Source of the DNA: Chitinophagaceae bacterium
Lineage (GTDB): Bacteria > Bacteroidota > Bacteroidia > Chitinophagales > Chitinophagaceae
NCBI GenBank assembly: GCA_039921525.1
Contig: JBDSBP010000575.1
Location: 4,712 to 68,711, forward strand
Direction: 5' to 3'
DNA: 64,000 nt
Part shown: positions 1,533 to 44,377 of the stretch, one piece after another
How positions within the stretch are numbered: the first letter of the stretch is position 1
Layout of the letters: each line of letters opens with the position of its first letter
Made by a program: the position numbers and the translations under genes
The notes under the pieces: model-generated
What the model saw: the letters and a program-made list of their open reading frames with translations, nothing else
Told to the model about the DNA's origin: nothing
Database searches by the model: none

Positions 1533-1701
1533 AATTCCTGTTCCGTCAATCGACGCACTCGTATTTGGGTTAAAAATATCAGCTACCTATTATCAGAAAA
1601 AAAATCAACAACCATTTCAATGGTTCCAAATGCAAACAATAACAGCCATTCAGCCAAACTGTTCAGGCATCCCGGTAACAGTCACCAACCCGTTATCAAA
1701 C

Positions 1702-1733
1702 TTAACAATTAACAATTAATAATTAACCATTAT
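1702..1733. repeat. tandem heptamer array, TTAAYAA/TTAATKG family (solo)
   Basis: TTAACAA TTAACAA TTAATAA TTAACCA TTAT, ending 3 nt from the dxr stop codon. Confidence 0.8.
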
Positions 1734-6510: not shown

Positions 6511-6545
6511 ATTCGTAATTCGTAATTAATAATTAGTAATTAAAG
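6511..6545. repeat. tandem heptamer array, ATTCGTA family
   Basis: ATTCGTA ATTCGTA ATTAATA ATTAGTA ATTAAAG. Contains the argF' stop codon (6540-6542). Confidence 0.85.
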
Positions 6546-7493
6546 TGAGCGAAGTATTTCTGCCAGCACCGCCTGGGCGGCCCACGCCCGGTTACCTGCC
6601 TGTTGTGTAACCAGGCTATTCTTGCTATCCAGTACTTCATCACTCAGTTCCACGTTTCTTCTTACCGGCAGGCAGTGCATTACCCGGGCGTTGTTTGTTA
6701 ATTTAATTTTTTCTTCCGTTAACATCCATTCGGGGTCGGTAGTATATATCTTGCCGTAATCGTTGTAGGTGCTCCAGTTCTTTACATAAACATAATCGGC
6801 ATCCATCAACGCTGCATCCTGATCGTGGGTAATTGTTGCACCCTTGGTAAATTTTTCAGACAGTTCATATTCTTCCGGGTGTGTTATCACGAAATCAGAT
6901 TCTCCCCATGCATTGATCCATTGCGCAAATGAGTTGGCCACGCACTGTGGCAGCGGTTTCACATGCGGTGCCCAGGAGAGTACAATTTTGGGCTTCCGCT
7001 TTACTGCGAAGGTTTCTTTGATTGTAATAATATCTGTCAGGCTTTGTAACGGATGCAGTGTAGCGCTTTCCAGGCTTACTATAGGAACACCGGCAAATTG
7101 CAGGAAGGAATTCATCACCATTTCACTATAATCGTCTTCCCTGTTTTTTAGGGAGGGAAAAGTTCGGATGCAGAGTATATCAAAGTATTGACCCAGTACC
7201 GGCGCAGCATCTTTAACATGTTACACCGTATTACCACTCATGATTGCGCCTTCTTCAAACTCAAGGGCCCAACCTTCCTTATCAATATTAAACACAATGG
7301 TTTCCATTCCAAGATTCCTGGAAGCCACCTGTGTGCTTAAACGGGTACGCAAAGAAGGATTGAGAAATAATAACCCGATACGTTTATCACCGCCCAGCAT
7401 TCTGTCTGAAAAAGGATCACTCTTATAAGCCAGGGCTTTTTCAACCAGTGCATCTATATTATCAATGTCGTTAACCGAAATGAAATTTTTCAA
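6540..7493 (-). pseudogene. argF': N-succinyl/N-acetyl-ornithine carbamoyltransferase (argF') interrupted by one in-frame TAA at 7221-7223
   Basis: Track ORFs 7221..7493 and 6540..7121 share one frame (7493-7121=372). I translated the 99 nt between them codon by codon. They read HVKDAAPVLGQYFDILCIRTFPSLKNREDDYSE with no other stop. The joined 317-aa product carries SLRTRLS, HPLQ and HCLPVRR motifs. Confidence 0.8.
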
Positions 7494-7502
7494 TGGCGGA
7501 AG

Positions 7503-7850
7503 TTAATTGTTAATGGTTAATGATTAATGGTTAATGGTTAATGATTAATTGATTAACGGTTCGTATTATTATCTGTCTTGATTCATAAAAATATTATTCT
7601 CTTCACTTTAATCATTAAAGATTAATTGTCGTATAGCATTTAATAGGCAACACTTTTTTAGCATGTATTTGATCATTTGGAATATGTTTATTTTCTTTTA
7701 AATGCTCTCCCCCTTGCGGATTTGGGTGAATTAAAGAAAATAAATATACACGCGAACAGAGGCGAAAAAGTATTACCTATGTGCTACCATCTATCAATTA
7801 ACAATTAACAATTAACCATTAACCATTAACAATTAACCATTAACCATTAT
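7503..7850. repeat. 348-bp element: inverted 8-unit TTAATKG / CMATTAA heptamer arrays flanking a 236-bp core
   Basis: Arms at 7503-7558 and 7795-7850. Together they fill the argD-argF' intergenic spacer. Confidence 0.9.
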
Positions 7851-8973
7851 ACTTCAGCTCTTTCTCCAGTGCCTCTAAAAAAATATCGGCCTCTACTTTT
7901 GTAGTGTTCAGTGCCGGCAGCAAACGTATTACATTAGGTTTGGATTCACCCGTAAATATTTTATGCCTGAACAAAAGATTTTTCTTAACCTGTTTAAACT
8001 CATCAGGCAAATCAATGCCAATCATCAATCCCCTCCCTCTCACTTCCCTTATGTTTGGCAACTTCTTCAGTTCAGTCATTAAATAATTACCCGTTTCCAG
8101 GGCCTTTTGCATTAGCTTGTCCTGTTCAATTATTTCAAGGACAGCCAATGCGGCGGCACATGCGAGGTGATTGCCTCCAAAGGTAGTACCCAACATGTAA
8201 TGTTTGGGCTGAATTTTAGGAGCAATGGAAATACCAGCTACCGGGAAACCATTACCCATTCCCTTTGCCATTGTATAAATATCCGCATTGATACCACTAT
8301 AGTCGTGCGAATAGAATTTGCCACTTCTTCCATATCCACATTGTACGGAATCAGCAACAAATACTGTATTGTATAGATCACATAAATGACGGATCTTCCG
8401 CAAAAAAGAGTCAGTGGCCACATTTATACCACCCACACCCTGTATACCTTCTATAATAACAGCGGCAATTTCATATTGAGAAAACGCCTCTTCCAACGCT
8501 GCCTCATCATTAAACGGAAGAAATACTACATTATCAGTTTGATTAACCGGCGCCACCAGGGAAGGATTATCCGTTACCGCTACAGCCAGGGAAGTTCTTC
8601 CATGAAAAGCTTTGGTAAATGAAATAACCTTTTTCCTTCCATTATAAAAAGATGCAAGCTTCAAAGCATTTTCGGTGGCTTCGGCTCCTGAATTACATAA
8701 AAACAACTGGAAGTCTTCTTTCCCCGAAACAACTCCCAGTTTGTTCGCCAGCTCAACCTGTAGTGGAATATGAACGGAATTAGAATAAAACCCTACTTTA
8801 TGAAGCTGATCTTCCAGGCGTTTAACATAATGCGGGTGTGTATGACCGATAGAGATAACGGCATGCCCGCCGTAAAGGTCTAAATATTTTTCTCCTTTTT
8901 CATCCCAAACATAAGAACCTTGAGCCTTCTCTATTGTGATGTCGTTGATGGGATATACGTCGAATAGTTTCAT
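7840..8973 (-). CDS. argD: acetyl/succinyl-ornithine aminotransferase (class III PLP)
   Basis: Class III aminotransferase motifs and a PLP-lysine context (TMAKGMGNG); operon context. Confidence 0.9.
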   Translation of the reverse strand: MKLFDVYPINDITIEKAQGSYVWDEKGEKYLDLYGGHAVISIGHTHPHYVKRLEDQLHKVGFYSNSVHIPLQVELANKLGVVSGKEDFQLFLCNSGAEATENALKLASFYNGRKKVISFTKAFHGRTSLAVAVTDNPSLVAPVNQTDNVVFLPFNDEAALEEAFSQYEIAAVIIEGIQGVGGINVATDSFLRKIRHLCDLYNTVFVADSVQCGYGRSGKFYSHDYSGINADIYTMAKGMGNGFPVAGISIAPKIQPKHYMLGTTFGGNHLACAAALAVLEIIEQDKLMQKALETGNYLMTELKKLPNIREVRGRGLMIGIDLPDEFKQVKKNLLFRHKIFTGESKPNVIRLLPALNTTKVEADIFLEALEKELKYNG

Positions 8974-11420: not shown

Positions 11421-12125
11421 TTAAAAATTAAAAAAGTAATGTAAGACAGATTTCGGCCGACTCGCTCCTTTCGTCTGCTTCTTTAGAAAAAAACGTAGCA
11501 ACCTGCTTTGTTTAATTTTCATGAACCTTTCATATATCTTGGAATTTTCTTTGAATTCCTGTGCAGTTTCCACGGGTTCATAATGATCAGCAGGGTCGTA
11601 TAACATAGCAGTGCACATACAATTCTTCCTCTCCTTGCTCACGAGAATGTCGTAGTTCACACAACTCTTACAACCGGCCCAAAATTCATCATCGTCTGTA
11701 AGTTCAGAGTAAGTAACGGGCTCATAGCCCAGATCAGAATTTATTTTCATTACGGCGAGACCTGTGGTCAATCCGAAAATTTTTGCGTCTGGATATCTCT
11801 CTCGGGAGAGATCAAATATTCTTCTTTTAATCAGCTTGGCAATACCGCTTTTGCGATGGGCGGGAGAAACCACCAGTCCGCTGTTCGCCACAAACTGATC
11901 ATGTCCCCAGGCTTCTATATAACAAAATCCTACCCATTCTCCATCCCTGGTAACTGCTATTACTGCTTTCCCTTCCTCCATTTTCTGTTCCAGGTAAGCA
12001 GGCGATCGCTTAGCTATTCCAGTACCTCTTGCTTTTGCGGAAGATTCCATTTCGCTAGTGATGGTGACAGAATAATGTTTATCGTTGGATGATGCCACCC
12101 TAACAATAATGTTTTGATGTTCCAA
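11421..12125 (-). CDS. GNAT family acyltransferase, first gene of the arg operon (ArgA-like role)
   Basis: GNAT core (VVSPAHRKSGIAKLI) plus a Cys-rich C-terminal extension. It occupies the position a GNAT gene takes in Bacteroidota arg operons. The track start is a TTG codon, so the exact start is uncertain. Confidence 0.7.
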   Translation of the reverse strand: MEHQNIIVRVASSNDKHYSVTITSEMESSAKARGTGIAKRSPAYLEQKMEEGKAVIAVTRDGEWVGFCYIEAWGHDQFVANSGLVVSPAHRKSGIAKLIKRRIFDLSRERYPDAKIFGLTTGLAVMKINSDLGYEPVTYSELTDDDEFWAGCKSCVNYDILVSKERKNCMCTAMLYDPADHYEPVETAQEFKENSKIYERFMKIKQSRLLRFFLKKQTKGASRPKSVLHYFFNF

Positions 12126-12384
12126 TTTCTTAAAATTGAATAGATGAATAAAGAAGAAAGAAAGATAGGTGATCTTAAAAATTCAGGGGATTTTTTCACT
12201 GATAGGGGCAAGTTCTATTGCTCGTCCTATCAGCAACCACGTCGCGCTCGGGGGAGATTGGTACAGAAACCCTCACTATAAAACAAAATTCTTTCAGGGC
12301 CTGCCTGTAAGAATGTCGTATATGTTGACTTGTTTTCCAATTTTTTATCTTAAGTGTTTAATTGCTTAAACGTTTACCAATCTG

Positions 12385-12444: not shown

Positions 12445-12602
12445 GGCTATCAGCCCTCTGCTATCAGCTTTCAGCTTCTACCACTTACGTATTATCTGCC
12501 TTTAATTAAATGTTTTCTTTCTGATTCACCAACCAAAATTCTTTTAACATAAATTTCAACGGTAGACGATAGCCGATAGCTGACAGCCGATAGCCGATAG
12601 CT
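12445..12602. repeat. inverted pair of heptamer arrays (GATAGCY family) flanking a core of about 88 bp (element B)
   Basis: Left arm is GGCTATC AGCCCTC TGCTATC AGCTTTC AGCTTCT (12445-12479). Right arm is GATAGCC GATAGCT GACAGCC GATAGCC GATAGCT (12568-12602) and overlaps the GH3 stop codon. Confidence 0.9.
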
Positions 12603-14097
12603 ACTTCTCCACAAACCTCATCAAATCATCTGCCACTACTCTATCATTACTCAATCGAGGAACTTTGTTCTGTCCTCCAAGCTTTCCAACGCTTTTCATG
12701 TAATCTATAAACCCACTTTTCCGCACCATCCTTATTTGAAGGGGTTGTAAAATATTACCGCCCACCAAATCGTCATAGTAAATATTTTTTTCACGAAGGT
12801 TGTTATCAACCTTTAACGCAAAGGCCCGTGCGTCAAGAGGTAATGTTTCAAATTCAACAAACCATTCATGGTAGCTCTTTTCATTATCCTGTGAAATCAT
12901 GGGTGCCACAGTAAATTCGGTTATCCGTAAACCCTCCTCCTGGGCCGCTTTCATAAGGCTATATTCAACTTCTTCTCCAATAACATGTTCCCCAAAGGCG
13001 GAAATAAAATGTTTGATCCGTCCTGTTACCATCAAACGGTAAGGATTAATGGAAATAAACTTCACCGTATCACCTACATTATATGCCCACAATCCCGCAT
13101 TGCTATTAATGATCAACGCATAATTCACACCTGGCTTTACATCCTTCAGCGAAAGCCGCGAAGGGTTGTCGTTAAAAATTTCAGCAGCAGGAACGAATTC
13201 AAAAAAGATTCCGCTATTGCTGTTCAACAACAGCCCTTCCCCATTTTGGGAATCCTGGAAAGCAAAGAAGCCTTCTGATGCCGGGTATGTTTCAATAGTA
13301 GCAACCCGTTTTCCAATGCTTTCGAACAGTTTTGCTTTATAGGGTTCAAAATTTACACCACCATGAACCAGTACGGAAAAATTAGGGAACAAGTCAATGA
13401 TTTTTTTCCCACTAACTTTCATTAAACGGTCAAAATACATTTGCACCCAGGGCGGAATGCCACTGATAAGGGTCATATCTTTATTAAGGGTCTCTTCCAC
13501 TATCTTATCCAGCTTGGTTTCCCAGTCATCAATGCAATTGGTTTCATAGCTGGGCATTTGATTGGTACGAAGGTATTTTGGTATGTGGTGATTAACAATG
13601 CCACTTAACCTTCCTGTTGGTATGCCCCCTACCCTTTCCAATTCTGGGGAGCCCGACAAAAAGATCATCTTACCATCGGCAAATTTATTGTTGCCGCTTT
13701 CAGCCATATAACATAATAAGGCATTGCGCGCGGTGTTAAGATGATTGGAAATAGAATCTTTGGTAATGGGAATATATTTTATTCCGCTTGTAGTGCCTGA
13801 AGTCTTTGCAAAATAAATAGGTTGGCCCTTCCAAAGTACATTATGCTTGCCTTCCTTTATCAGATTGATATAGGGTTTAAAACTCTCGTAGTCACGGATC
13901 TTTACAGCAGACTTATATTCATCATACGTTTTTACATCCTTATAATGATGGTCATTACCAAACGAGGTTTGAGACCCAACTTTCAGTAGCTCTTTAAATG
14001 TGGTTTCCTGATCTTCCACGGCAGTTAACATTCCCTTCCGAACCTGTTTGTAGATATACGAAGCGAAAGGCTTCGCAAAAAGTGATTTAAATTTCAT
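12601..14097 (-). CDS. GH3 auxin-responsive-promoter family protein (acyl-adenylate-forming fold)
   Basis: 498 aa. TSGTTSG-KYIP motif near residue 100, and overall resemblance to the bacterial GH3 family common in Bacteroidota. Confidence 0.85.
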   Translation of the reverse strand: MKFKSLFAKPFASYIYKQVRKGMLTAVEDQETTFKELLKVGSQTSFGNDHHYKDVKTYDEYKSAVKIRDYESFKPYINLIKEGKHNVLWKGQPIYFAKTSGTTSGIKYIPITKDSISNHLNTARNALLCYMAESGNNKFADGKMIFLSGSPELERVGGIPTGRLSGIVNHHIPKYLRTNQMPSYETNCIDDWETKLDKIVEETLNKDMTLISGIPPWVQMYFDRLMKVSGKKIIDLFPNFSVLVHGGVNFEPYKAKLFESIGKRVATIETYPASEGFFAFQDSQNGEGLLLNSNSGIFFEFVPAAEIFNDNPSRLSLKDVKPGVNYALIINSNAGLWAYNVGDTVKFISINPYRLMVTGRIKHFISAFGEHVIGEEVEYSLMKAAQEEGLRITEFTVAPMISQDNEKSYHEWFVEFETLPLDARAFALKVDNNLREKNIYYDDLVGGNILQPLQIRMVRKSGFIDYMKSVGKLGGQNKVPRLSNDRVVADDLMRFVEK

Positions 14098-15139: not shown

Positions 15140-15277
15140 ATGGCCACTGCAAAAAAAGCTGCTCCTAAAAAAGCCGCACCGAAGAAAGCTGCTGCGAAAG
15201 CTGCTCCTAAAAAAGCCGCCGCTAAAAAAGCTGCTCCTAAAAAAGCTGCTAAGAAAGCCGCTCCTAAAAAGAAATAA
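15140..15277 (+). CDS. 45-aa Lys/Ala/Pro-repeat protein (histone H1-like)
   Basis: Hand-translated; too short for the ORF track. Sequence is MATAKKAAPKKAAPKKAAAKAAPKKAAAKKAAPKKAAKKAAPKKK*. A strong hairpin with a T-run follows directly. Confidence 0.6.
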   Translation: MATAKKAAPKKAAPKKAAAKAAPKKAAAKKAAPKKAAKKAAPKKK

Positions 15278-15357: not shown

Positions 15358-15550
15358 GGCTTTCAGCTATCAGCTATCAGCTATCAGCTGTAAATTGTTG
15401 GCTGTATTAAATTGTTATTCAGATATCAACTACCAGGCTTGAAGCATAATATCCTACTATCATTCTTCCCGATTTTTTTCACTGACACCGAAGGTATTGC
15501 CCTGCACTGATAGCTAAAAGCTGATAGCTGATAGCTGAAGGCTGAAAGCT
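15358..15550. repeat. inverted pair of heptamer arrays (GATAGCY family) flanking a core of about 115 bp (element C)
   Basis: Left arm is GGCTTTC AGCTATC x3 AGCTG (15358-15390). Right arm is GATAGCT AAAAGCT GATAGCT GATAGCT GAAGGCT GAAAGCT (15509-15550). Confidence 0.9.
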
Positions 15551-15560
15551 GAATTATACT

Positions 15561-32924: not shown

Positions 32925-34696
32925 GTCAGCTGGATTGGATAGTACTGGGAGTTTCATTGATTGGGATTGTTGCCTATGGCTTATATAAAAGCAAAACTAC
33001 CAGGGACCTTGATGGTTATTTTTTGAGTAACCGTACAATGCCCTGGTATTTGGTTTTATTAAGTATTATGGGAACGCAGGCCAGTGCAATAACTTTTCTT
33101 TCTGCTCCCGGTCAGGCATATACGGATGGAATGCGTTTCGTTCAATACTATTTTGGGCTGCCACTGGCAATGGTTTTGTTATGTATCACCTTCGTTCCCA
33201 TCTTCCATAAATTAAAAGTTTATACCGCTTACGAATACCTTGAAAACCGGTTCGATGTAAAAACCAGGACACTCACCTCTTTTCTTTTTTTATTACAACG
33301 TGGCCTTTCAACCGGTATCAGTATTTACGCACCCTCCATAATTCTTTCGTCTCTGTTCGGCTGGAATATTTTCTGGACGAATATTGTAATGGGTGGACTT
33401 CTGATTATTTATACCGTTAGTGGCGGCGCAAGAGCCGTTGCCTATACCCAACAATTGCAATTTGTTATCATCTTTGTAGGAATGGCTGTAACGGCCTATA
33501 TGGTGGTTCGCTTGCTACCCAACGGTATAGATTTTATTGATACGCTTAAAGTCAGTGGAAGATTGGGCAAATTAAACGTTATCACCACCGGCAATACAGA
33601 CAAAGGATTTAACTGGAATGACCGGTATAATATCTGGAGCGGTATTATCGGCGGATTCTTCCTGGCCTTGTCTTATTTCGGCACCGATCAAAGCCAGGTG
33701 GGACGCTACCTCACGGCAAAAAGTGTTTCAGAAAGCAGGATCGGTTTATTAATGAACGGATTGGTAAAGGTTCCCATGCAGTTTCTTATCCTGCTGGTGG
33801 GTGCTATGGTTTTCACCTTTTACCAGTTTAACCAGGCACCGCTTTTTTTTAATCAGACACAGGTGGCGATTGTTGAATCATCATCGTACAAAGATTCCCT
33901 CCATATTATTCAGCAACGATACTCCAGCTTATCTGCACAAAAAAAGAAGCTGGTGGAGCAATTTGTAGGTGATTATAAATCGGGCAGGAATACAGATCAA
34001 CCCGTAACTGCTTTAAAACAAGTAAATAAGGAAACGGAAAAACTTCGGAGCGACTTTAAGAATATTCTTGAAAAAGAAGATGTCAACGGGGATTCCAATG
34101 ACACCAATTATATTTTTCTACGTTTTGTAGTGGATTACATGCCGAAGGGGTTGGTGGGTCTTTTAATAGCGGTTATCTTCCTCGCTTCCTGGGGCAGCAT
34201 CGCAGCAGCGCTTAACTCGTTGGCTTCCACCACGGTTGTAGACATTCATAAAAAATTTGTGCAACTAGACTGCACGGAGGCGCAGGATTATTCCATATCC
34301 AAGTGGTATACTTTTGCCTGGGGCATCTTCAGCATTATCATAGCACAGTTTGCGGGCAATATGGGCAGCCTTATTGAAGCAGTGAATGTGCTCGGCTCTT
34401 TGTTTTACGGGGTAATACTGGGCATTTTTTTAGTAGCTTTTTATATGAAGAGCATCAGGGGAAACGCCGTATTTATCAGTGCAATACTGGTTGAAATTAT
34501 AATCATACTCTCCTTCGTCTGGCCATGGTTAACGAAAAAAATCCCCTCGGTAATTGATAAGATGCCTTCTTTTATTCAACACTTCATGGAAGGTATGGCG
34601 AACATCAGTTTTCTCTGGTTGAATGCCATTGGCGCTATTGGTATGATTGTGATGTCTTTTTTATTGCAATTGGTGTTGAAGAAAAGAACGAATTAA
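32921..34696 (+). CDS. sodium:solute symporter family transporter
   Basis: About 13 TM helices with an SSS-type N-terminus. The likely start is MSQLDWIVLG at 32921; the track start at 32849 lies inside the upstream mini-ORF. Confidence 0.85.
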   Translation: MSQLDWIVLGVSLIGIVAYGLYKSKTTRDLDGYFLSNRTMPWYLVLLSIMGTQASAITFLSAPGQAYTDGMRFVQYYFGLPLAMVLLCITFVPIFHKLKVYTAYEYLENRFDVKTRTLTSFLFLLQRGLSTGISIYAPSIILSSLFGWNIFWTNIVMGGLLIIYTVSGGARAVAYTQQLQFVIIFVGMAVTAYMVVRLLPNGIDFIDTLKVSGRLGKLNVITTGNTDKGFNWNDRYNIWSGIIGGFFLALSYFGTDQSQVGRYLTAKSVSESRIGLLMNGLVKVPMQFLILLVGAMVFTFYQFNQAPLFFNQTQVAIVESSSYKDSLHIIQQRYSSLSAQKKKLVEQFVGDYKSGRNTDQPVTALKQVNKETEKLRSDFKNILEKEDVNGDSNDTNYIFLRFVVDYMPKGLVGLLIAVIFLASWGSIAAALNSLASTTVVDIHKKFVQLDCTEAQDYSISKWYTFAWGIFSIIIAQFAGNMGSLIEAVNVLGSLFYGVILGIFLVAFYMKSIRGNAVFISAILVEIIIILSFVWPWLTKKIPSVIDKMPSFIQHFMEGMANISFLWLNAIGAIGMIVMSFLLQLVLKKRTN

Positions 34697-34717
34697 TTGT
34701 TAATTGTTAATTGTTAA
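34694..34717. repeat. tandem heptamer array TAATTGT x3
   Basis: Starts with the symporter TAA stop codon (34694-34696). Confidence 0.85.
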
Positions 34718-34812
34718 CGGCTTTCACGGTCCAACGTCATAAACAATACAATTCTTTCTTTTGCGTTTATTACTCGAATTGATTCCAAATCCTGTGATAA
34801 ATCCTATCCACT

Positions 34813-37413
34813 TTGAAAAAGAAAGTCTATCTCCTTTTTATAGCCATATTAGTCTTTAAGGCAGGTTTTACCCAATTACAAACAAAGGCTGATAAACCAT
34901 CCAATACCGGACGATTTTATGGCAGAATCATCGATGCGTCTGATAATAAAGGATTAGCATCCGGTTCTGTGCAATTGATTCTCAGGCAGGTTGACAAACA
35001 CACTCAAGCCACGAAAGATTCTCTTGTTGACGGTATGCTTACTTTGAAAAATGGCGATTTTAATTTTGAAAATGTTTCTCTATCGTCTGACCTGGTGTTA
35101 ATTGTAACAGCATTGGGCTTTAAGAAACATGAAGAGAAAATTAATGTAAGCCAGAAAGGTTCAAAAAAGCTGGGATTGGATATGGACCTTGGAAATATTA
35201 AGCTGGCTATTGATCCTAAATTATTGGAAACAGTAACGGTTACATCCGGTAAACCGCTGATGTCTCTCGGCATCGACAGGAAGGTATTTAATGTGGAAAA
35301 AAGTATTACTTCTGCCGGTGGAACTGCCGAAGATGTAATGCGCAGCGTTCCCTCACTCTCGGTAGACATGGATGGTAATGTTACGCTTCGCAACAGCTCT
35401 CCTCAATTATTTGTTGATGGCCGGCCAACCACGATGTCATTAGATCAAATTCCCGCGGACGCAATGGAAAGTGTGGAGATCATAACGAATCCATCTGCAA
35501 AGTTTGATGCATCGGGTGGCGGTGGTGGAATACTAAACATTGTTCTTAAAAAAAATAGAAAAGCCGGGTATAATGGATCATTAAAAACGGGTATTGATCA
35601 ACGTGGACGTTATAGCTTCGGGGGAGATATCAATGTTCGCCAGGGTAAAATAAATATGTTTGTCAGCACTAATTATCGCCAGCGTAAATCCATATCAACA
35701 GGTAAAACAGAGCGTTTAACCATATTGGAAAATGCCAATACCCAATTATATCAAACCGATAATACCATACAGGAAAGATCGAATTTTTTCCTGCGTGCAG
35801 GAATGGATTACTTAATGGATAACAGGAATACAATTACTGTATCGGGATATATTACCGATGGCCGATCCAACAGCAATTCAAGATCAGCCTTGCTTATTGA
35901 CACCATCAATGCAAACGGTAAAAATTCTTCTTTTAGAGAACGCTTGTCACTTCCGGGATCTGAAGCTAAAAATAATGGAGCTACTATAGGTTATAAACAC
36001 CTGTTTGCCAAGTCTGGCAAGGAATGGACCGCCGATATCACCTACACAGGAAGCAATAATACACAGGAAAATAATATCAGCACATCATCATATAATTTTG
36101 TTAACGGGCCATTGAGTAACCATTTCGCCCAGCAAATTAATGGAAGTGGAAACAACGCTAATATTACCTTTCAAACCGATTATGTAAATCCAATTACTAA
36201 AAATTCAAAGATTGAACTGGGAGCCCGCATGCAATTAAAAAGTGCAAAAAACTGGAATAACATCAGTTACCTTAATGAGTCCGGCATATATACCTATATA
36301 CCCCAGCTGTCTTCCAATTATGTGAACAAAAACAACGTGTTAGCAGGGTATGGCAGCTTTTCTAATAAGATCAAAAAGTTTGCTTACCAGCTTGGCCTGC
36401 GTATTGAGAGCTCTGAATCTAACGGAGAAGTTACAACCACGGGTATAAAAGGAAATGACACACTGCTTCATGTTGGTAATCATTTTCCTTTTAGTTTATT
36501 TCCCAGTATATTCCTGACGCAACAACTCGGCAATAGCCAGGAATTACAATTCAGCATCACCCGCAGAATAAACAGGCCTGATTTCTGGCAGTTGTTTCCA
36601 TTCACGGATTATTCCGATTCATTAAATCTGAACAGGGGCAATCCGGACCTTAGACCGGAATTCACATACTCTGCTGAATTAGCCTACGAAAAATCGTTCT
36701 CCGATAAAAATATTTTCCTGGCTTCTGCTTATTTTAAGTATACCGACCAGTTGATTACCCGTTTCCAGGAAGTAGAGGTTAGCCCGGTAACAGGTAAGGA
36801 AAACCTGGTTAGTACTTTTATTAACGCCAACTCGAGTTATACCAGTGGCCTGGAATTTATTTATCGCCAGTCGATGGCCAAGTGGTGGGAAATGACGAGT
36901 AACCTTAACCTGTTTAATACAAAGATTAACCTGGGCAATGCTGCTATCGTTGAACAGAAAAATATTTACAGCTGGTTTGCCAAGCTCAATAACACATTCA
37001 AACTGCCGAAAAACTTTTCATTTGAAGTGAGTAGCGAGTACAGTTCCAGGAGGGTGCTGCCACAGGGCAGTTCCAAGAACGGCGGCGGAAAAGATGGGAT
37101 AATCAACTTCGGGCAGCCAGCGTCTACTGCGCAGGGTTATATCAGGCCACGGTTAGAAGTAGATGCTGCGGTAAGATTCGATTTCCTTAAGAACAAGAAG
37201 GCTTCCCTCACATTACATGTTAGCGATGTTTTTAGAACAGATGCCAGTAATATCTATTCTGAATCTATATATTTCAGACAGGATTCTTATCGCCTTAAAG
37301 ATCCACAATACTTCCGGCTTCATTTCACGTGGCGTTTCGGTAAGTTTGATGCTTCTTTATTCAAGCGAAAAAATAATAAAATAGAAGAAAACCTGGATGA
37401 AAGCGAGAATTAA
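34813..37413 (+). CDS. TonB-dependent-receptor-like outer-membrane beta-barrel protein
   Basis: Signal peptide, N-terminal carboxypeptidase-regulatory-like segment, plug-like region (DVMRSVPSLSVD), long Tyr/Asn/Ser-rich beta-barrel. TTG start. Confidence 0.8.
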   Translation: MKKKVYLLFIAILVFKAGFTQLQTKADKPSNTGRFYGRIIDASDNKGLASGSVQLILRQVDKHTQATKDSLVDGMLTLKNGDFNFENVSLSSDLVLIVTALGFKKHEEKINVSQKGSKKLGLDMDLGNIKLAIDPKLLETVTVTSGKPLMSLGIDRKVFNVEKSITSAGGTAEDVMRSVPSLSVDMDGNVTLRNSSPQLFVDGRPTTMSLDQIPADAMESVEIITNPSAKFDASGGGGGILNIVLKKNRKAGYNGSLKTGIDQRGRYSFGGDINVRQGKINMFVSTNYRQRKSISTGKTERLTILENANTQLYQTDNTIQERSNFFLRAGMDYLMDNRNTITVSGYITDGRSNSNSRSALLIDTINANGKNSSFRERLSLPGSEAKNNGATIGYKHLFAKSGKEWTADITYTGSNNTQENNISTSSYNFVNGPLSNHFAQQINGSGNNANITFQTDYVNPITKNSKIELGARMQLKSAKNWNNISYLNESGIYTYIPQLSSNYVNKNNVLAGYGSFSNKIKKFAYQLGLRIESSESNGEVTTTGIKGNDTLLHVGNHFPFSLFPSIFLTQQLGNSQELQFSITRRINRPDFWQLFPFTDYSDSLNLNRGNPDLRPEFTYSAELAYEKSFSDKNIFLASAYFKYTDQLITRFQEVEVSPVTGKENLVSTFINANSSYTSGLEFIYRQSMAKWWEMTSNLNLFNTKINLGNAAIVEQKNIYSWFAKLNNTFKLPKNFSFEVSSEYSSRRVLPQGSSKNGGGKDGIINFGQPASTAQGYIRPRLEVDAAVRFDFLKNKKASLTLHVSDVFRTDASNIYSESIYFRQDSYRLKDPQYFRLHFTWRFGKFDASLFKRKNNKIEENLDESEN

Positions 37414-37480
37414 TGGTTAATGGTTAATGGTTAATTGTTAATGGTTAATTGTTAATGGTTAATTGTTAATGGTTAATTCT
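37411..37480. repeat. 10-unit tandem heptamer array TAATGGT/TAATTGT
   Basis: Starts with the TAA stop of the outer-membrane receptor (37411-37413). Confidence 0.92.
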
Positions 37481-37512: not shown

Positions 37513-37625
37513 CTCTGTATAACAAATATATTACACAGAGTTACACGGAGAAGGCACGGAGTTTCACGGAGGGCCTCCGTGTATCTCCGTAAACCCTCTG
37601 TGTAACAAATGTATCTCGCAGAGTT
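37513..37625. repeat. cluster of nested CACGGAG/CACAGAG palindromes (REP-like)
   Basis: TTACACAGAG TTACACGGAG AAGGCACGGAG TTTCACGGAG GGC CTCCGTG TAT CTCCGTAA ACCCTCTGTGTAA; nested inverted repeats. Confidence 0.75.
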
Positions 37626-39913: not shown

Positions 39914-39925
39914 TCATCTTTTATA

Positions 39926-39946
39926 TTAACAATTAACAATTAACCA
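39926..39946. repeat. tandem heptamer array TTAACAA x2, TTAACCA
   Basis: Contains the ECF sigma stop codon (39933-39935) and encodes its last residues, TMVNC. Confidence 0.8.
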
Positions 39947-40514
39947 TTGTCCCCGCTTCTATGCAAATCTTTAAATTTCTTCTGCCGTTCTGGATAAGGC
40001 TTCGGACTTTACTGACGTCTGTACCTGTTATATCAGCAATTTCTTTGTAGCATTTATTCTGCAGATAAAACAATTCAACGCTCTCTTTTTGTTCGGTCGA
40101 TAATTTTTGTAAGCATTGTTCCATTTTTTGCAGGTTTTCTTCCTTTTGAAATACAATATCCAGATGCTCATTTTCTGCCGATTGCATAACCAACGGGTTG
40201 AATTCAACTGTTTTTATGTTTTTAGGGCTTCGCAATTGCATCAGGCAATGGTTTTTAGCCAATGTATACAACCAGTTCCTAAAATTATCAATTTCATATC
40301 TATGTATTTTTAGTATCAATTCTTCAAAGATCTGCATAACGGCATCTTTAGACTCTTCTGTATTCTTAAGGTACTTAAGGCATACGCCATATACCAGTTC
40401 CATATAACGTTCGTATAAAACGCCCATCAATTTTGGATCGTTAGATTGCTTATACGCCCTTACCAGTTCAAGATCAGGAGGACCAGGGGTTGATATGTTT
40501 TTTAAAAAAGACAA
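39933..40514 (-). CDS. ECF-type RNA polymerase sigma-70 factor
   Basis: Region 2 (FRNWLYTLAKNHCLMQLR) and region 4 HTH (YKEIADITGTDVSKVRSLIQNGRRNL). Confidence 0.85.
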   Translation of the reverse strand: MSFLKNISTPGPPDLELVRAYKQSNDPKLMGVLYERYMELVYGVCLKYLKNTEESKDAVMQIFEELILKIHRYEIDNFRNWLYTLAKNHCLMQLRSPKNIKTVEFNPLVMQSAENEHLDIVFQKEENLQKMEQCLQKLSTEQKESVELFYLQNKCYKEIADITGTDVSKVRSLIQNGRRNLKICIEAGTMVNC

Positions 40515-44252: not shown

Positions 44253-44377
44253 GCTGTCAGCTATCAGCTATCGGCTATCAGGAGGAAATTACTCACATTG
44301 ACCTGCTGAACGCTGATAGCCGATAGCCGATAGCCGATAGCTGACGGCCGATAGCTGACAGCCGATCGCTGATATCA
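44253..44377. repeat. inverted pair of heptamer arrays (GATAGCY family), 4 and 10 units, spacer of about 25 bp (element D)
   Basis: Left arm is GCTGTCA GCTATCA GCTATCG GCTATCA (44253-44280). Right arm is GAACGCT GATAGCC x3 GATAGCT GACGGCC GATAGCT GACAGCC GATCGCT GATATCA (44308-44377). Confidence 0.9.

Follow-up and report, generated by a model that had tools for sequence, protein, structure and literature searches.

Tandem arrays of heptamers have been catalogued in bacteria for 35 years, among them the short tandemly repeated repetitive (STRR) heptamers of heterocystous cyanobacteria and the TAACTGA and GGGAATC arrays, and this cataloguing has provided neither an origin nor a function for them; the intervening sequences (IVSs) of 23S rRNA and the S23p proteins encoded within them are equally unexplained. 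Here, we describe a 348-bp element with inverted heptamer arrays at its two ends that lies between argD and argF' in an arginine biosynthesis (arg) operon. The element occupies positions 7503–7850 of a 64,000-nt stretch of DNA from a Chitinophagaceae bacterium (GenBank assembly GCA_039921525.1, contig JBDSBP010000575.1, positions 4,712–68,711 of the forward strand), which was analysed over its whole length and is referred to as the window. With moderate confidence, the argD–argF' spacer is regarded as a member, lacking any open reading frame (ORF), of a class of hairpin-bracketed intergenic cassettes that end in inverted heptamer arrays and whose full-length members carry one gene of the TIGR02436 family of four-helix-bundle proteins.

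The closest described systems are the 23S rRNA IVSs of Leptospira, Coxiella, Brucella and Xanthomonas (PMC4990558), in which a few hundred nucleotides are looped out from a long stem of terminal inverted repeats, as in the window element. The Coxiella IVS contains tandem heptamers and an S23p ORF, and RNase III cuts its terminal stem in vitro (PMC4990558). The likeness to the window element extends to these heptamers (GACAGAT in the Coxiella IVS, and inverted heptamer arrays in an Azospirillum IVS described below), to the S23p-family ORF that is present in the argD–argF' spacer of relatives, and to the decay of this ORF, which is seen both in the Coxiella IVS and in arg spacers. The window element differs in being located in the spacer of an mRNA operon, outside helix 25 or 45 of 23S rRNA, and in being ORF-less, although the S23p ORF is optional and many IVSs do not contain one; excision by RNase III is, for the window element, a prediction.

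Paired heptamer-array hairpins are already known from Xanthomonas, where 70–75 convergent pairs of GGGAATC arrays per genome are able to form stem-loops (Rehm et al., 2015; PMC4692102). The Xanthomonas GGGAATC and Nostoc GGGGAYT arrays resemble those of the window in being intergenic and close to the 3' end of the upstream ORF; they are mostly transcribed, and their length varies among relatives while the single or paired type is kept (PMC4692102). The Xanthomonas units, however, are G-rich and quadruplex-forming and belong to a gammaproteobacterium, whereas those studied here are AT-rich and belong to the Bacteroidota, and PMC4692102 draws no link to four-helix-bundle genes or IVSs. TAACTGA arrays have been reported from Beggiatoaceae, Cyanobacteria and five Bacteroidetes (PMC4679880). 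Like the window arrays, STRR and TAACTGA arrays are intergenic with a period of 7 and often run over a stop codon or end just ahead of a start codon; the forward TAACTGA units also provide stops in three frames, and close relatives lack the arrays in their orthologous spacers (PMC4679880). The differences are that they consist of other units and are direct, with MacGregor reporting only one inverted case in the Beggiatoa genome (PMC4679880), and that no bracketed core or cargo gene has been described for them.

According to the first-pass annotation of the window, which was made from the sequence alone, no architecture of this kind was known to have been described in Bacteroidota. This stood in the literature that was searched, with two qualifications, the convergent pairs in Xanthomonas (PMC4692102) and the heptamer arrays as such in five Bacteroidetes (PMC4679880). 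No link between arrays and genes for four-helix-bundle or IVS proteins was found in the searched literature, with the direct heptamers of the Coxiella IVS as a partial exception (PMC4990558). What is new here is the AT-rich, Bacteroidota version of the paired-array hairpin; the link between cassette, four-helix-bundle gene and arrays is the novel part, and is supported by sampling rather than by a genome-wide census. Other small intergenic inverted-repeat elements are co-transcribed with their flanking genes, including Correia/NEMIS (Neisseria), ERIC and REP/BIME; NEMIS hairpins are cut by RNase III, and REP hairpins stabilize the upstream mRNA. These elements are multi-copy and of conserved sequence, whereas in the arrays studied here only the 7-nt unit is common and the cores are unique.

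The arg operon is read from the minus strand, on which the element begins with a 5' arm of eight UUAAUKG units (7795–7850) and ends with a 3' arm of eight CMAUUAA or UCAUUAA units (7503–7558). The former was identified by Tandem Repeats Finder (TRF), by inverted-repeat pairs I1–I9 and by pattern counts compared with shuffled sequence, and the latter by TRF, by inverted repeats and by alignment with the related loci L001–L003. The individual units were as originally read, namely, on the forward strand, TTAATTG TTAATGG TTAATGA TTAATGG TTAATGG TTAATGA TTAATTG ATTAACG at 7503–7558 and CAATTAA (three times), CCATTAA (twice), CAATTAA, CCATTAA and CCATTAT at 7795–7850. TRF assigned a period of 7 to both arrays, with 8.4 copies (score 76) at 7502–7561 and 7.9 copies (93 % matches, score 82) at 7795–7849. 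The two arms proved to be inverted repeats of each other, with complementarity of 85 % over 59 nt, 90 % over 48 nt and 93 % over 41 nt. The GC content of the arms was 21 %, compared with 29.7 % for the 236-nt core that they enclose (7559–7794) and 38.6 % for the window.

The core is indeed AT-rich and without a credible ORF, the sole one being a mechanical 43-aa ORF on the antisense strand. It includes a degenerate third heptamer triplet, TTAATCA TTAAAGA TTAATTG (7608–7628, plus strand), which was detected as the third copy of repeat D2 (86 %) and as a pattern match with two mismatches. An inner A/U-rich hairpin of the core (7683–7748, inverted repeat I16) has 16-nt arms (7683–7698 and 7733–7748) that are 94 % complementary, with a 34-nt loop, and was present in both the minimum free energy and the centroid folds.

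Both neighbouring genes are reached by the arms, as had been noted at the outset. The 5' arm begins within the end of argD, holds UAA in all three frames, and encodes the last three argD codons (Y, N and G) and the TAA stop, the protein ending in ELKYNG compared with ELK in the closest relatives. The other arm stops 9 nt short of the argF' start codon, a TTG at 7493–7491. The first-pass annotation equated the element with the entire spacer; the 348-bp element was confirmed, but the spacer proper covers 7494–7839 (346 nt). That annotation also missed that the window contains many other such arrays, and that relatives carry a four-helix-bundle gene inside the bracket.

ArgD-based scans provided 160 related arg operons from Chitinophagaceae (metagenome-assembled genomes of Ferruginibacter and Flavihumibacter, up to 89 % identity) and Sphingobacteriaceae; the best ArgD identity was 89 % among genome contigs and 83 % among metagenome contigs, and an exact look-up of the window ArgD in the assembly collection gave no record. 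Compared loci are labelled with L-numbers (L001, L025 and so on), L168 and L169 being plasmids. The length of the argD–argF' spacer was determined for the 78 genome loci in which both genes were placeable, and ranged from 0 to approximately 540 nt, with the exception of L057, in which 1.4 kb separate argD and argF'. Presence/absence among orthologous operons, which the first-pass annotation had named as a check, was strongly polymorphic at this spacer, as was its length. The argD stop and argF' start codons overlap or abut in at least 11 genomes, indicating that the ancestral spacer was tiny and that the 346 nt found in the window represent an insertion or expansion. L002 and L003, which are the closest relatives (~88–89 % ArgD identity), share the TTAATKG family and an orthologous 3' arm, with shorter heptamer arms than those in the window and a core of only ~45 nt.

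A 118-aa ORF was found in the argD–argF' spacer of eight genomes (L011, L014, L015, L017, L020, L048, L050 and L106). It encodes a TIGR02436 four-helix-bundle protein (113–124 bits, with a score cut-off of 24 bits), the L011 copy being frameshifted. Judged by its sequence, this protein is the S23p family protein of 23S rRNA IVSs; it shows weak similarity to Avd of diversity-generating retroelements and is homologous to the pentameric PDB entries 2GSC and 2RLD. Inverted (CTGAAAG)n/(CTTTCAG)n-type repeats bracket the gene in all eight genomes (in most genomes they were recovered by the array caller, in the others by eye), overlapping the argD stop and ending 4–8 nt ahead of the argF' start. The 200-nt spacer of L025 contains an internally deleted copy of the gene, of which the N-terminal 20 aa and the C-terminal tail are left with the arrays still bracketing them, and so provides a direct precedent, at the argD–argF' position itself, for a bracketed spacer that lacks an ORF. 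Pseudogenes or remnants of four-helix-bundle genes were identified in L011, L031, L051, L005 and L004.

The array survey covered 161 sequences (1.47 Mb) and yielded 180 arrays belonging to more than 40 unit families. Inverted pairs made up 16 of the 42 adjacent array pairs, compared with 1.75 expected and a maximum of seven in 2000 permutations. The 17 listed pairs fell into two classes, one with gene-holding cores of 405–488 nt and the other with ORF-less cores of 30–242 nt, the window core being the longest of the ORF-less class; an inverted array pair without any core was present in L020. For most pairs with a gene call beside the arm, the start of the 5' arm fell between −13 and +14 nt relative to the upstream stop, and the end of the 3' arm 4–13 nt ahead of a co-directional start. 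Arrays were present within 120 nt of 23 out of 36 four-helix-bundle genes, compared with 136 out of 1315 other genes. All 36 of these genes were co-oriented with the operon, and they were distributed over four spacers (GNAT–argG, argC–argD, argD–argF' and argE–argH). In L007, an array spans the interval from the argC stop to the ATG of the inserted gene, and again that from the stop of the inserted gene to the argD ATG. The MQNYK protein clade was accompanied by TAAGTRR/YYACTTA arrays at both its argC–argD and its argE–argH sites.

A separate case within the survey is L053 (Chitinophaga solisilvae), which has a second AATTACG/ATTCGTA inverted pair at 12007–12152. Its 84-nt core is a near-perfect palindrome, so that the whole L053 element is one hairpin of ~70 bp.

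The same architecture was recovered from other phyla. Querying PLSDB with tblastn placed the four-helix-bundle gene on 45 plasmids, mostly from Nostocales, and 12 loci spaced evenly over the list were sampled (Nostocales, Pseudanabaena, Leptolyngbya, Stanieria, Gemmatirosa, Treponema and Azospirillum). Heptamer (or octamer) repeats adjoined the ORF in all 12 sampled loci, on both sides in most, and were clearly inverted in at least seven (Anabaena, N. punctiforme, N. edaphicum, Gemmatirosa, Stanieria, Aulosira and Azospirillum). The Azospirillum locus is embedded in a large-subunit rRNA gene (708 bits) and is therefore a genuine IVS with inverted heptamer-array ends. The background on a Nostoc plasmid was five arrays per 59 coding sequences over 50 kb; one of these arrays abuts the only four-helix-bundle gene, and two others form an ORF-less inverted pair. 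In IMG/VR, six loci of a GC-rich prophage carried the four-helix-bundle gene antisense between phage structural genes, with (GCTATCG)n-type repeats on both sides in five of the six. On two cyanobacterial plasmids, L168 (Pseudanabaena) and L169 (Anabaena sp. 90 pANA02), a four-helix-bundle gene is located between cas6 and cas4 in CRISPR-cas operons and is flanked by long heptamer arrays of up to ~20 units.

In silico folding reproduced the very long AU-rich hairpin that had been predicted for the window element. The sense-strand spacer RNA reached −108 kcal/mol (z = −8.1), a stability matched by 0 of 100 shuffles, and the core folded alone gave z = −2.9 for the sense strand compared with −1.1 for the antisense strand. 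Because the operon is co-directional and lacks a terminator consensus here, the spacer is presumably transcribed as part of a polycistronic arg mRNA. Pairing between the arms would yield an A/U-rich duplex of ~55 bp from which the 236-nt core is looped out. The argD stop, located within the stem base, would thereby come to lie beside the argF' start, 9 nt outside that base. By analogy with IVS stems, whose cleavage by this enzyme has been demonstrated experimentally, the duplex is probably a substrate for RNase III, cleavage by which would excise the core and split the operon transcript. An intact stem would occlude the argF' leader, and a ribosome terminating on argD might partly reopen it; imposing a ribosome footprint at the argD stop in a partition-function model raised the probability that argF' positions −20 to −1 are unpaired from 0.20 to 0.50. 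A looped-out insert could preserve the proximity of stop and start codons, which would account for the tolerance of compact operons to such insertions. We consider the element more likely to be a tolerated selfish or decaying insertion than a device for arginine regulation, since most relatives are without it and the same architecture is found beside unrelated genes.

Several observations count against a cassette origin for the window spacer. No relic of a four-helix-bundle gene was detected in the core, where tblastn returned nothing at E ≤ 10 and core-only profile searches gave −0.5 bits at the protein level (hmmsearch --max, six frames) and −7.8 bits at the DNA level (nhmmer), and no four-helix-bundle gene was present anywhere in the 64-kb window; descent from a gene-carrying cassette is accordingly argued by analogy with L025. 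TTAATKG is the family found in the window and its closest relatives, compared with CTGAAAG in the gene-carrying cassettes at this site, and most arrays in the survey were not beside a four-helix-bundle gene, which indicates that arrays exist independently of the gene. Arms that abut both flanking genes are expected for any insertion into a tiny ancestral spacer and are not in themselves an argument for function, and a premature stop in argF' (see below) suggests that selection on the operon may be relaxed. RNase III cleavage and co-transcription of the spacer, both of them predictions, are a further weak point. Finally, when G–U asymmetry was used to compare selection on the RNA with selection on the DNA, duplex energies favoured the sense strand in ~11 pairs and the antisense strand in three, some of the pairs being non-independent, and a sense-strand bias this weak makes maintenance at the DNA level, through slippage and template switching, a serious rival.

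Under that explanation the spacer is local simple sequence, with neither an RNA function nor kinship to mobile cassettes. Its heptamers would grow by replication slippage, in the manner of STRR and long simple sequence repeats (LSSRs), until checked by coding constraint, and intrastrand template switching (quasi-palindrome correction), acting on the DNA, would both create the inverted layout and preserve its complementarity. The many unpaired arrays of several families in the window, the unique and mutually unrelated cores, the intrusion of arrays on the last codons of argD, the core-less inverted pair in L020 and the weak strand asymmetry of the duplex energies are all in keeping with slippage, which, in the passages of PMC4679880 and PMC4692102 that summarize Mrazek (2007), is already the published explanation of heptamer abundance. 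Slippage leaves unexplained, however, why four-helix-bundle genes lie exactly between inverted arrays in at least five phyla and in a 23S rRNA IVS, why a protein clade keeps its array family across insertion sites, and why array orientation relative to transcription is strict (11 out of 11, on both DNA strands). We therefore judge this explanation to be rather unlikely.

A cis-regulatory device of the arg operon appears less likely again. The arrays would in that case be periodic sites for a protein that binds RNA or DNA, possibly the pentameric four-helix-bundle protein itself, or the stem would set the argD : argF' ratio through translational coupling or differential mRNA stability. A role in stability would resemble that of the REP/BIME elements in the malE–malF spacer of Escherichia coli. 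Regulation would be compatible with the location of the argD stop and the argF' start by the stem base, the model in which termination of a ribosome on argD unmasks the argF' leader, the fixed orientation of arrays relative to transcription and the conservation of the arms in L002 and L003 despite a differing core. In most relatives, however, the spacer is absent or of unrelated sequence, and so is not a conserved component of the regulation of arg genes; the same architecture stands beside cas genes, conjugation genes, phage structural genes and rRNA, and we know of no protein that binds the arrays.

The suggestion in the first-pass annotation of an insertion resembling a miniature inverted-repeat transposable element (MITE) was upheld in part, in that an insertion with heptamer terminal inverted repeats fits the cassettes found at this site in relatives. 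A classical MITE, i.e. a non-autonomous transposon with terminal inverted repeats that is mobilized in trans by a transposase, is very unlikely. It would account for the terminal inverted repeats, the AT-rich non-coding core and the presence/absence among relatives, but the core was found only once in the 64-kb window and nowhere in 1.4 Mb of related loci (a blastn comparison at word size 7, with the window and loci L001–L080 as targets, gave chance-level matches only), and pairs sharing an arm family had unrelated cores (cores of nine pairs compared). Arm lengths also vary, and the arm units are common to unpaired arrays. No direct repeat that could be recognized as a target-site duplication was visible at the junctions of GAGCTGAAG with TATAATGG and of AATTAAC with TTCCGCCA, the boundaries being ambiguous in the repetitive arms. 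An intrinsic terminator or attenuator, or an internal promoter for argF'-argB-argE-argH, can be dismissed as highly improbable despite the very stable hairpin between two genes and two weak TAnnTTTA near-matches seen by eye in the sense strand of the core: a G+C-rich stem followed by a T run was found at 0 sites in 7300–8050, the arms being 21 % GC, the 3' arm is followed by CUUCCGCCAUUG with no U tract, a promoter scan gave no sigma-70-like excess over shuffles, and the Bacteroidetes −33/−7 pattern TTTG-N17-23-TAnnTTTG had no match in the spacer, so the intra-operon terminator offered in the first-pass annotation was discarded.

The cassette reading of the spacer can be placed in a wider frame, which we put forward tentatively and as falling short of probable. 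The TIGR02436 (Avd-like, pentameric) gene and the inverted heptamer arrays would constitute a single widespread class of inserted element, ranging over Bacteroidota, Cyanobacteriota, Gemmatimonadota, Spirochaetota, Pseudomonadota and phages. Classical IVSs would be the rRNA instance of this class, many STRR-type arrays and ORF-less hairpins would be its footprints or deletion derivatives, and the arms would neutralize the insertion by looping out and RNase III excision. Because protein clades keep their unit family across insertion sites, the four-helix-bundle protein may recognize or propagate its own heptamer unit. The window locus and its relatives join heptamer arrays with IVS genes in four arg spacers, cas operons, conjugation genes, a prophage and an rRNA IVS, and decay intermediates lead from gene-carrying cassettes to ORF-less hairpin spacers like that in the window. 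If this proposal is correct, heptamer arrays would be the ends of cassettes, a stem that loops out the insertion and is probably cut by RNase III would be the means by which a compact operon tolerates an insert, and there would be a model for the role of a very abundant four-helix-bundle family. For genome annotation, it would account for long 'empty' spacers and for C-terminal extensions that are encoded by arrays.

At least 16 period-7 arrays were identified in the 64-kb window, compared with 0.00–0.01 expected, with unit families including TTAATKG, GCTATCA/CTGATAG, AATTACG, GTATGAG and others. The three-unit TTAATKR pattern, with up to two mismatches, gave 28 matches compared with 0.00 expected from 100 shuffles. 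By inspection, ~12 of the arrays begin 0–3 nt from a stop codon, with the stop often inside the first unit. Post-stop arrays had a fixed sense-strand orientation (TTAATKG, six out of six; GCTATCA, five out of five), with genes on both DNA strands. The provision of stops in three frames was considered as a general reason for post-stop arrays and rejected, as it holds for TTAATKG but fails for 5' arms of the GCTATCA type.

The recurrence of paired arrays, anticipated in the first-pass annotation, was confirmed both in relatives and in the window, which contains four more inverted pairs (five in all) with ORF-less cores of ~30–120 nt. On the plus strand, a (GCTATCA)n ... (CTGATAG/CTGAAAG)n pair with a 117-nt ORF-less core is located at 15359–15553 (31 nt, 94 % complementary), and a (GCTATCA)n ... 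(GCYGATA)n pair with a loop of ~31 nt lies between convergent genes at 44253–44374 (29 nt, 90 % complementary). The two pairs on the minus strand are at 12445–12603 (28 nt, 79 % complementary), where the 5' arm, (GCUAUCG)n, starts from the stop codon of the gene at 12601–14097, and at 15–185 (26 nt, 88 % complementary), where the 5' arm, (GCUAUCA/GCUGUCA)n, starts 1 nt past the stop of the gene at 183–1532. An unpaired (TTAATGG/TTAATTG) array of 9.7 units extends from the stop codon of the gene at 34813–37413 (37410–37479, plus strand), and further TTAATKG-family arrays in the same orientation are present at 1699–1733 (minus strand), 6523–6543 (minus), 34693–34720 (plus) and 39923–39950 (minus).

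Two other repeats were observed near these arrays. A palindromic element of CACGGAG/CACAGAG units (TTACACAGAGTTACACGGAG...CTCCGTGTATCTCCGTAAACCCTCTGTGTAA) is situated at 37530–37610 between two convergent genes, each of which has its own post-stop heptamer array; the two arrays are non-complementary. At 15152–15270, a coding tandem repeat specifies a lysine/alanine/proline-rich protein (KKAAP-type, histone-H1-like), directly upstream of a canonical terminator hairpin and the heptamer pair at 15359–15553.

The arg operon itself has a gene order typical of Bacteroidota (GNAT, argG, argC, argD, spacer, argF', argB, argE, argH; minus strand). The product of argD (7840–8973, minus strand) is an acetylornithine/succinylornithine aminotransferase (NCBIfam TIGR00707, 339 bits), and that of argF' (6540–7493, minus strand) is an N-acyl-ornithine carbamoyltransferase, with NCBIfam NF003384 matching both halves. 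In argF', codon 91 (7223–7221) reads TAA in frame; the corresponding codon of relatives is GAA (Glu), part of the conserved motif VEHVKD. The gene is otherwise intact, giving one single-frame tblastn alignment that is 89 % identical to L001; a frameshift was thereby ruled out in favour of the single in-frame TAA. A recent pseudogene, a sequencing error or recoding are all possible. No tRNA or tmRNA genes were found in the window, and Rfam returned nothing at the gathering threshold over its whole length, rRNA included.

Other repeats and hairpins were encountered in the arg spacers of relatives. The argD–argF' spacer of L007 (7131–7356) opens with tandem repeats of ~18 nt (CCCTGACGG(T/C)GGTTGCA(A/G)(A/G)) rather than heptamers, which marks the argD–argF' site as a hotspot for different repeat types. 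A conserved motif of the form GTACAAG[AGT]GAG-(hairpin or UGAC)-ACAACGATG recurs in arg-operon spacers of several Chitinophagaceae (L004 at 11023, L010 at 7353, L031 at 7248, L019, L021 and L055), and a variant of it is found twice in the L005 spacer. No Rfam match was obtained for the motif loci L005, L007, L010 and L031, and the motif may be an undescribed RNA motif or small repeat element. A conserved hairpin, GTTCCCCTT(T/C)nGGGGACAGGGG, ends 0–4 nt ahead of the argD ATG in eight genomes (L010, L013, L016, L048, L058, L071, L085 and L113).

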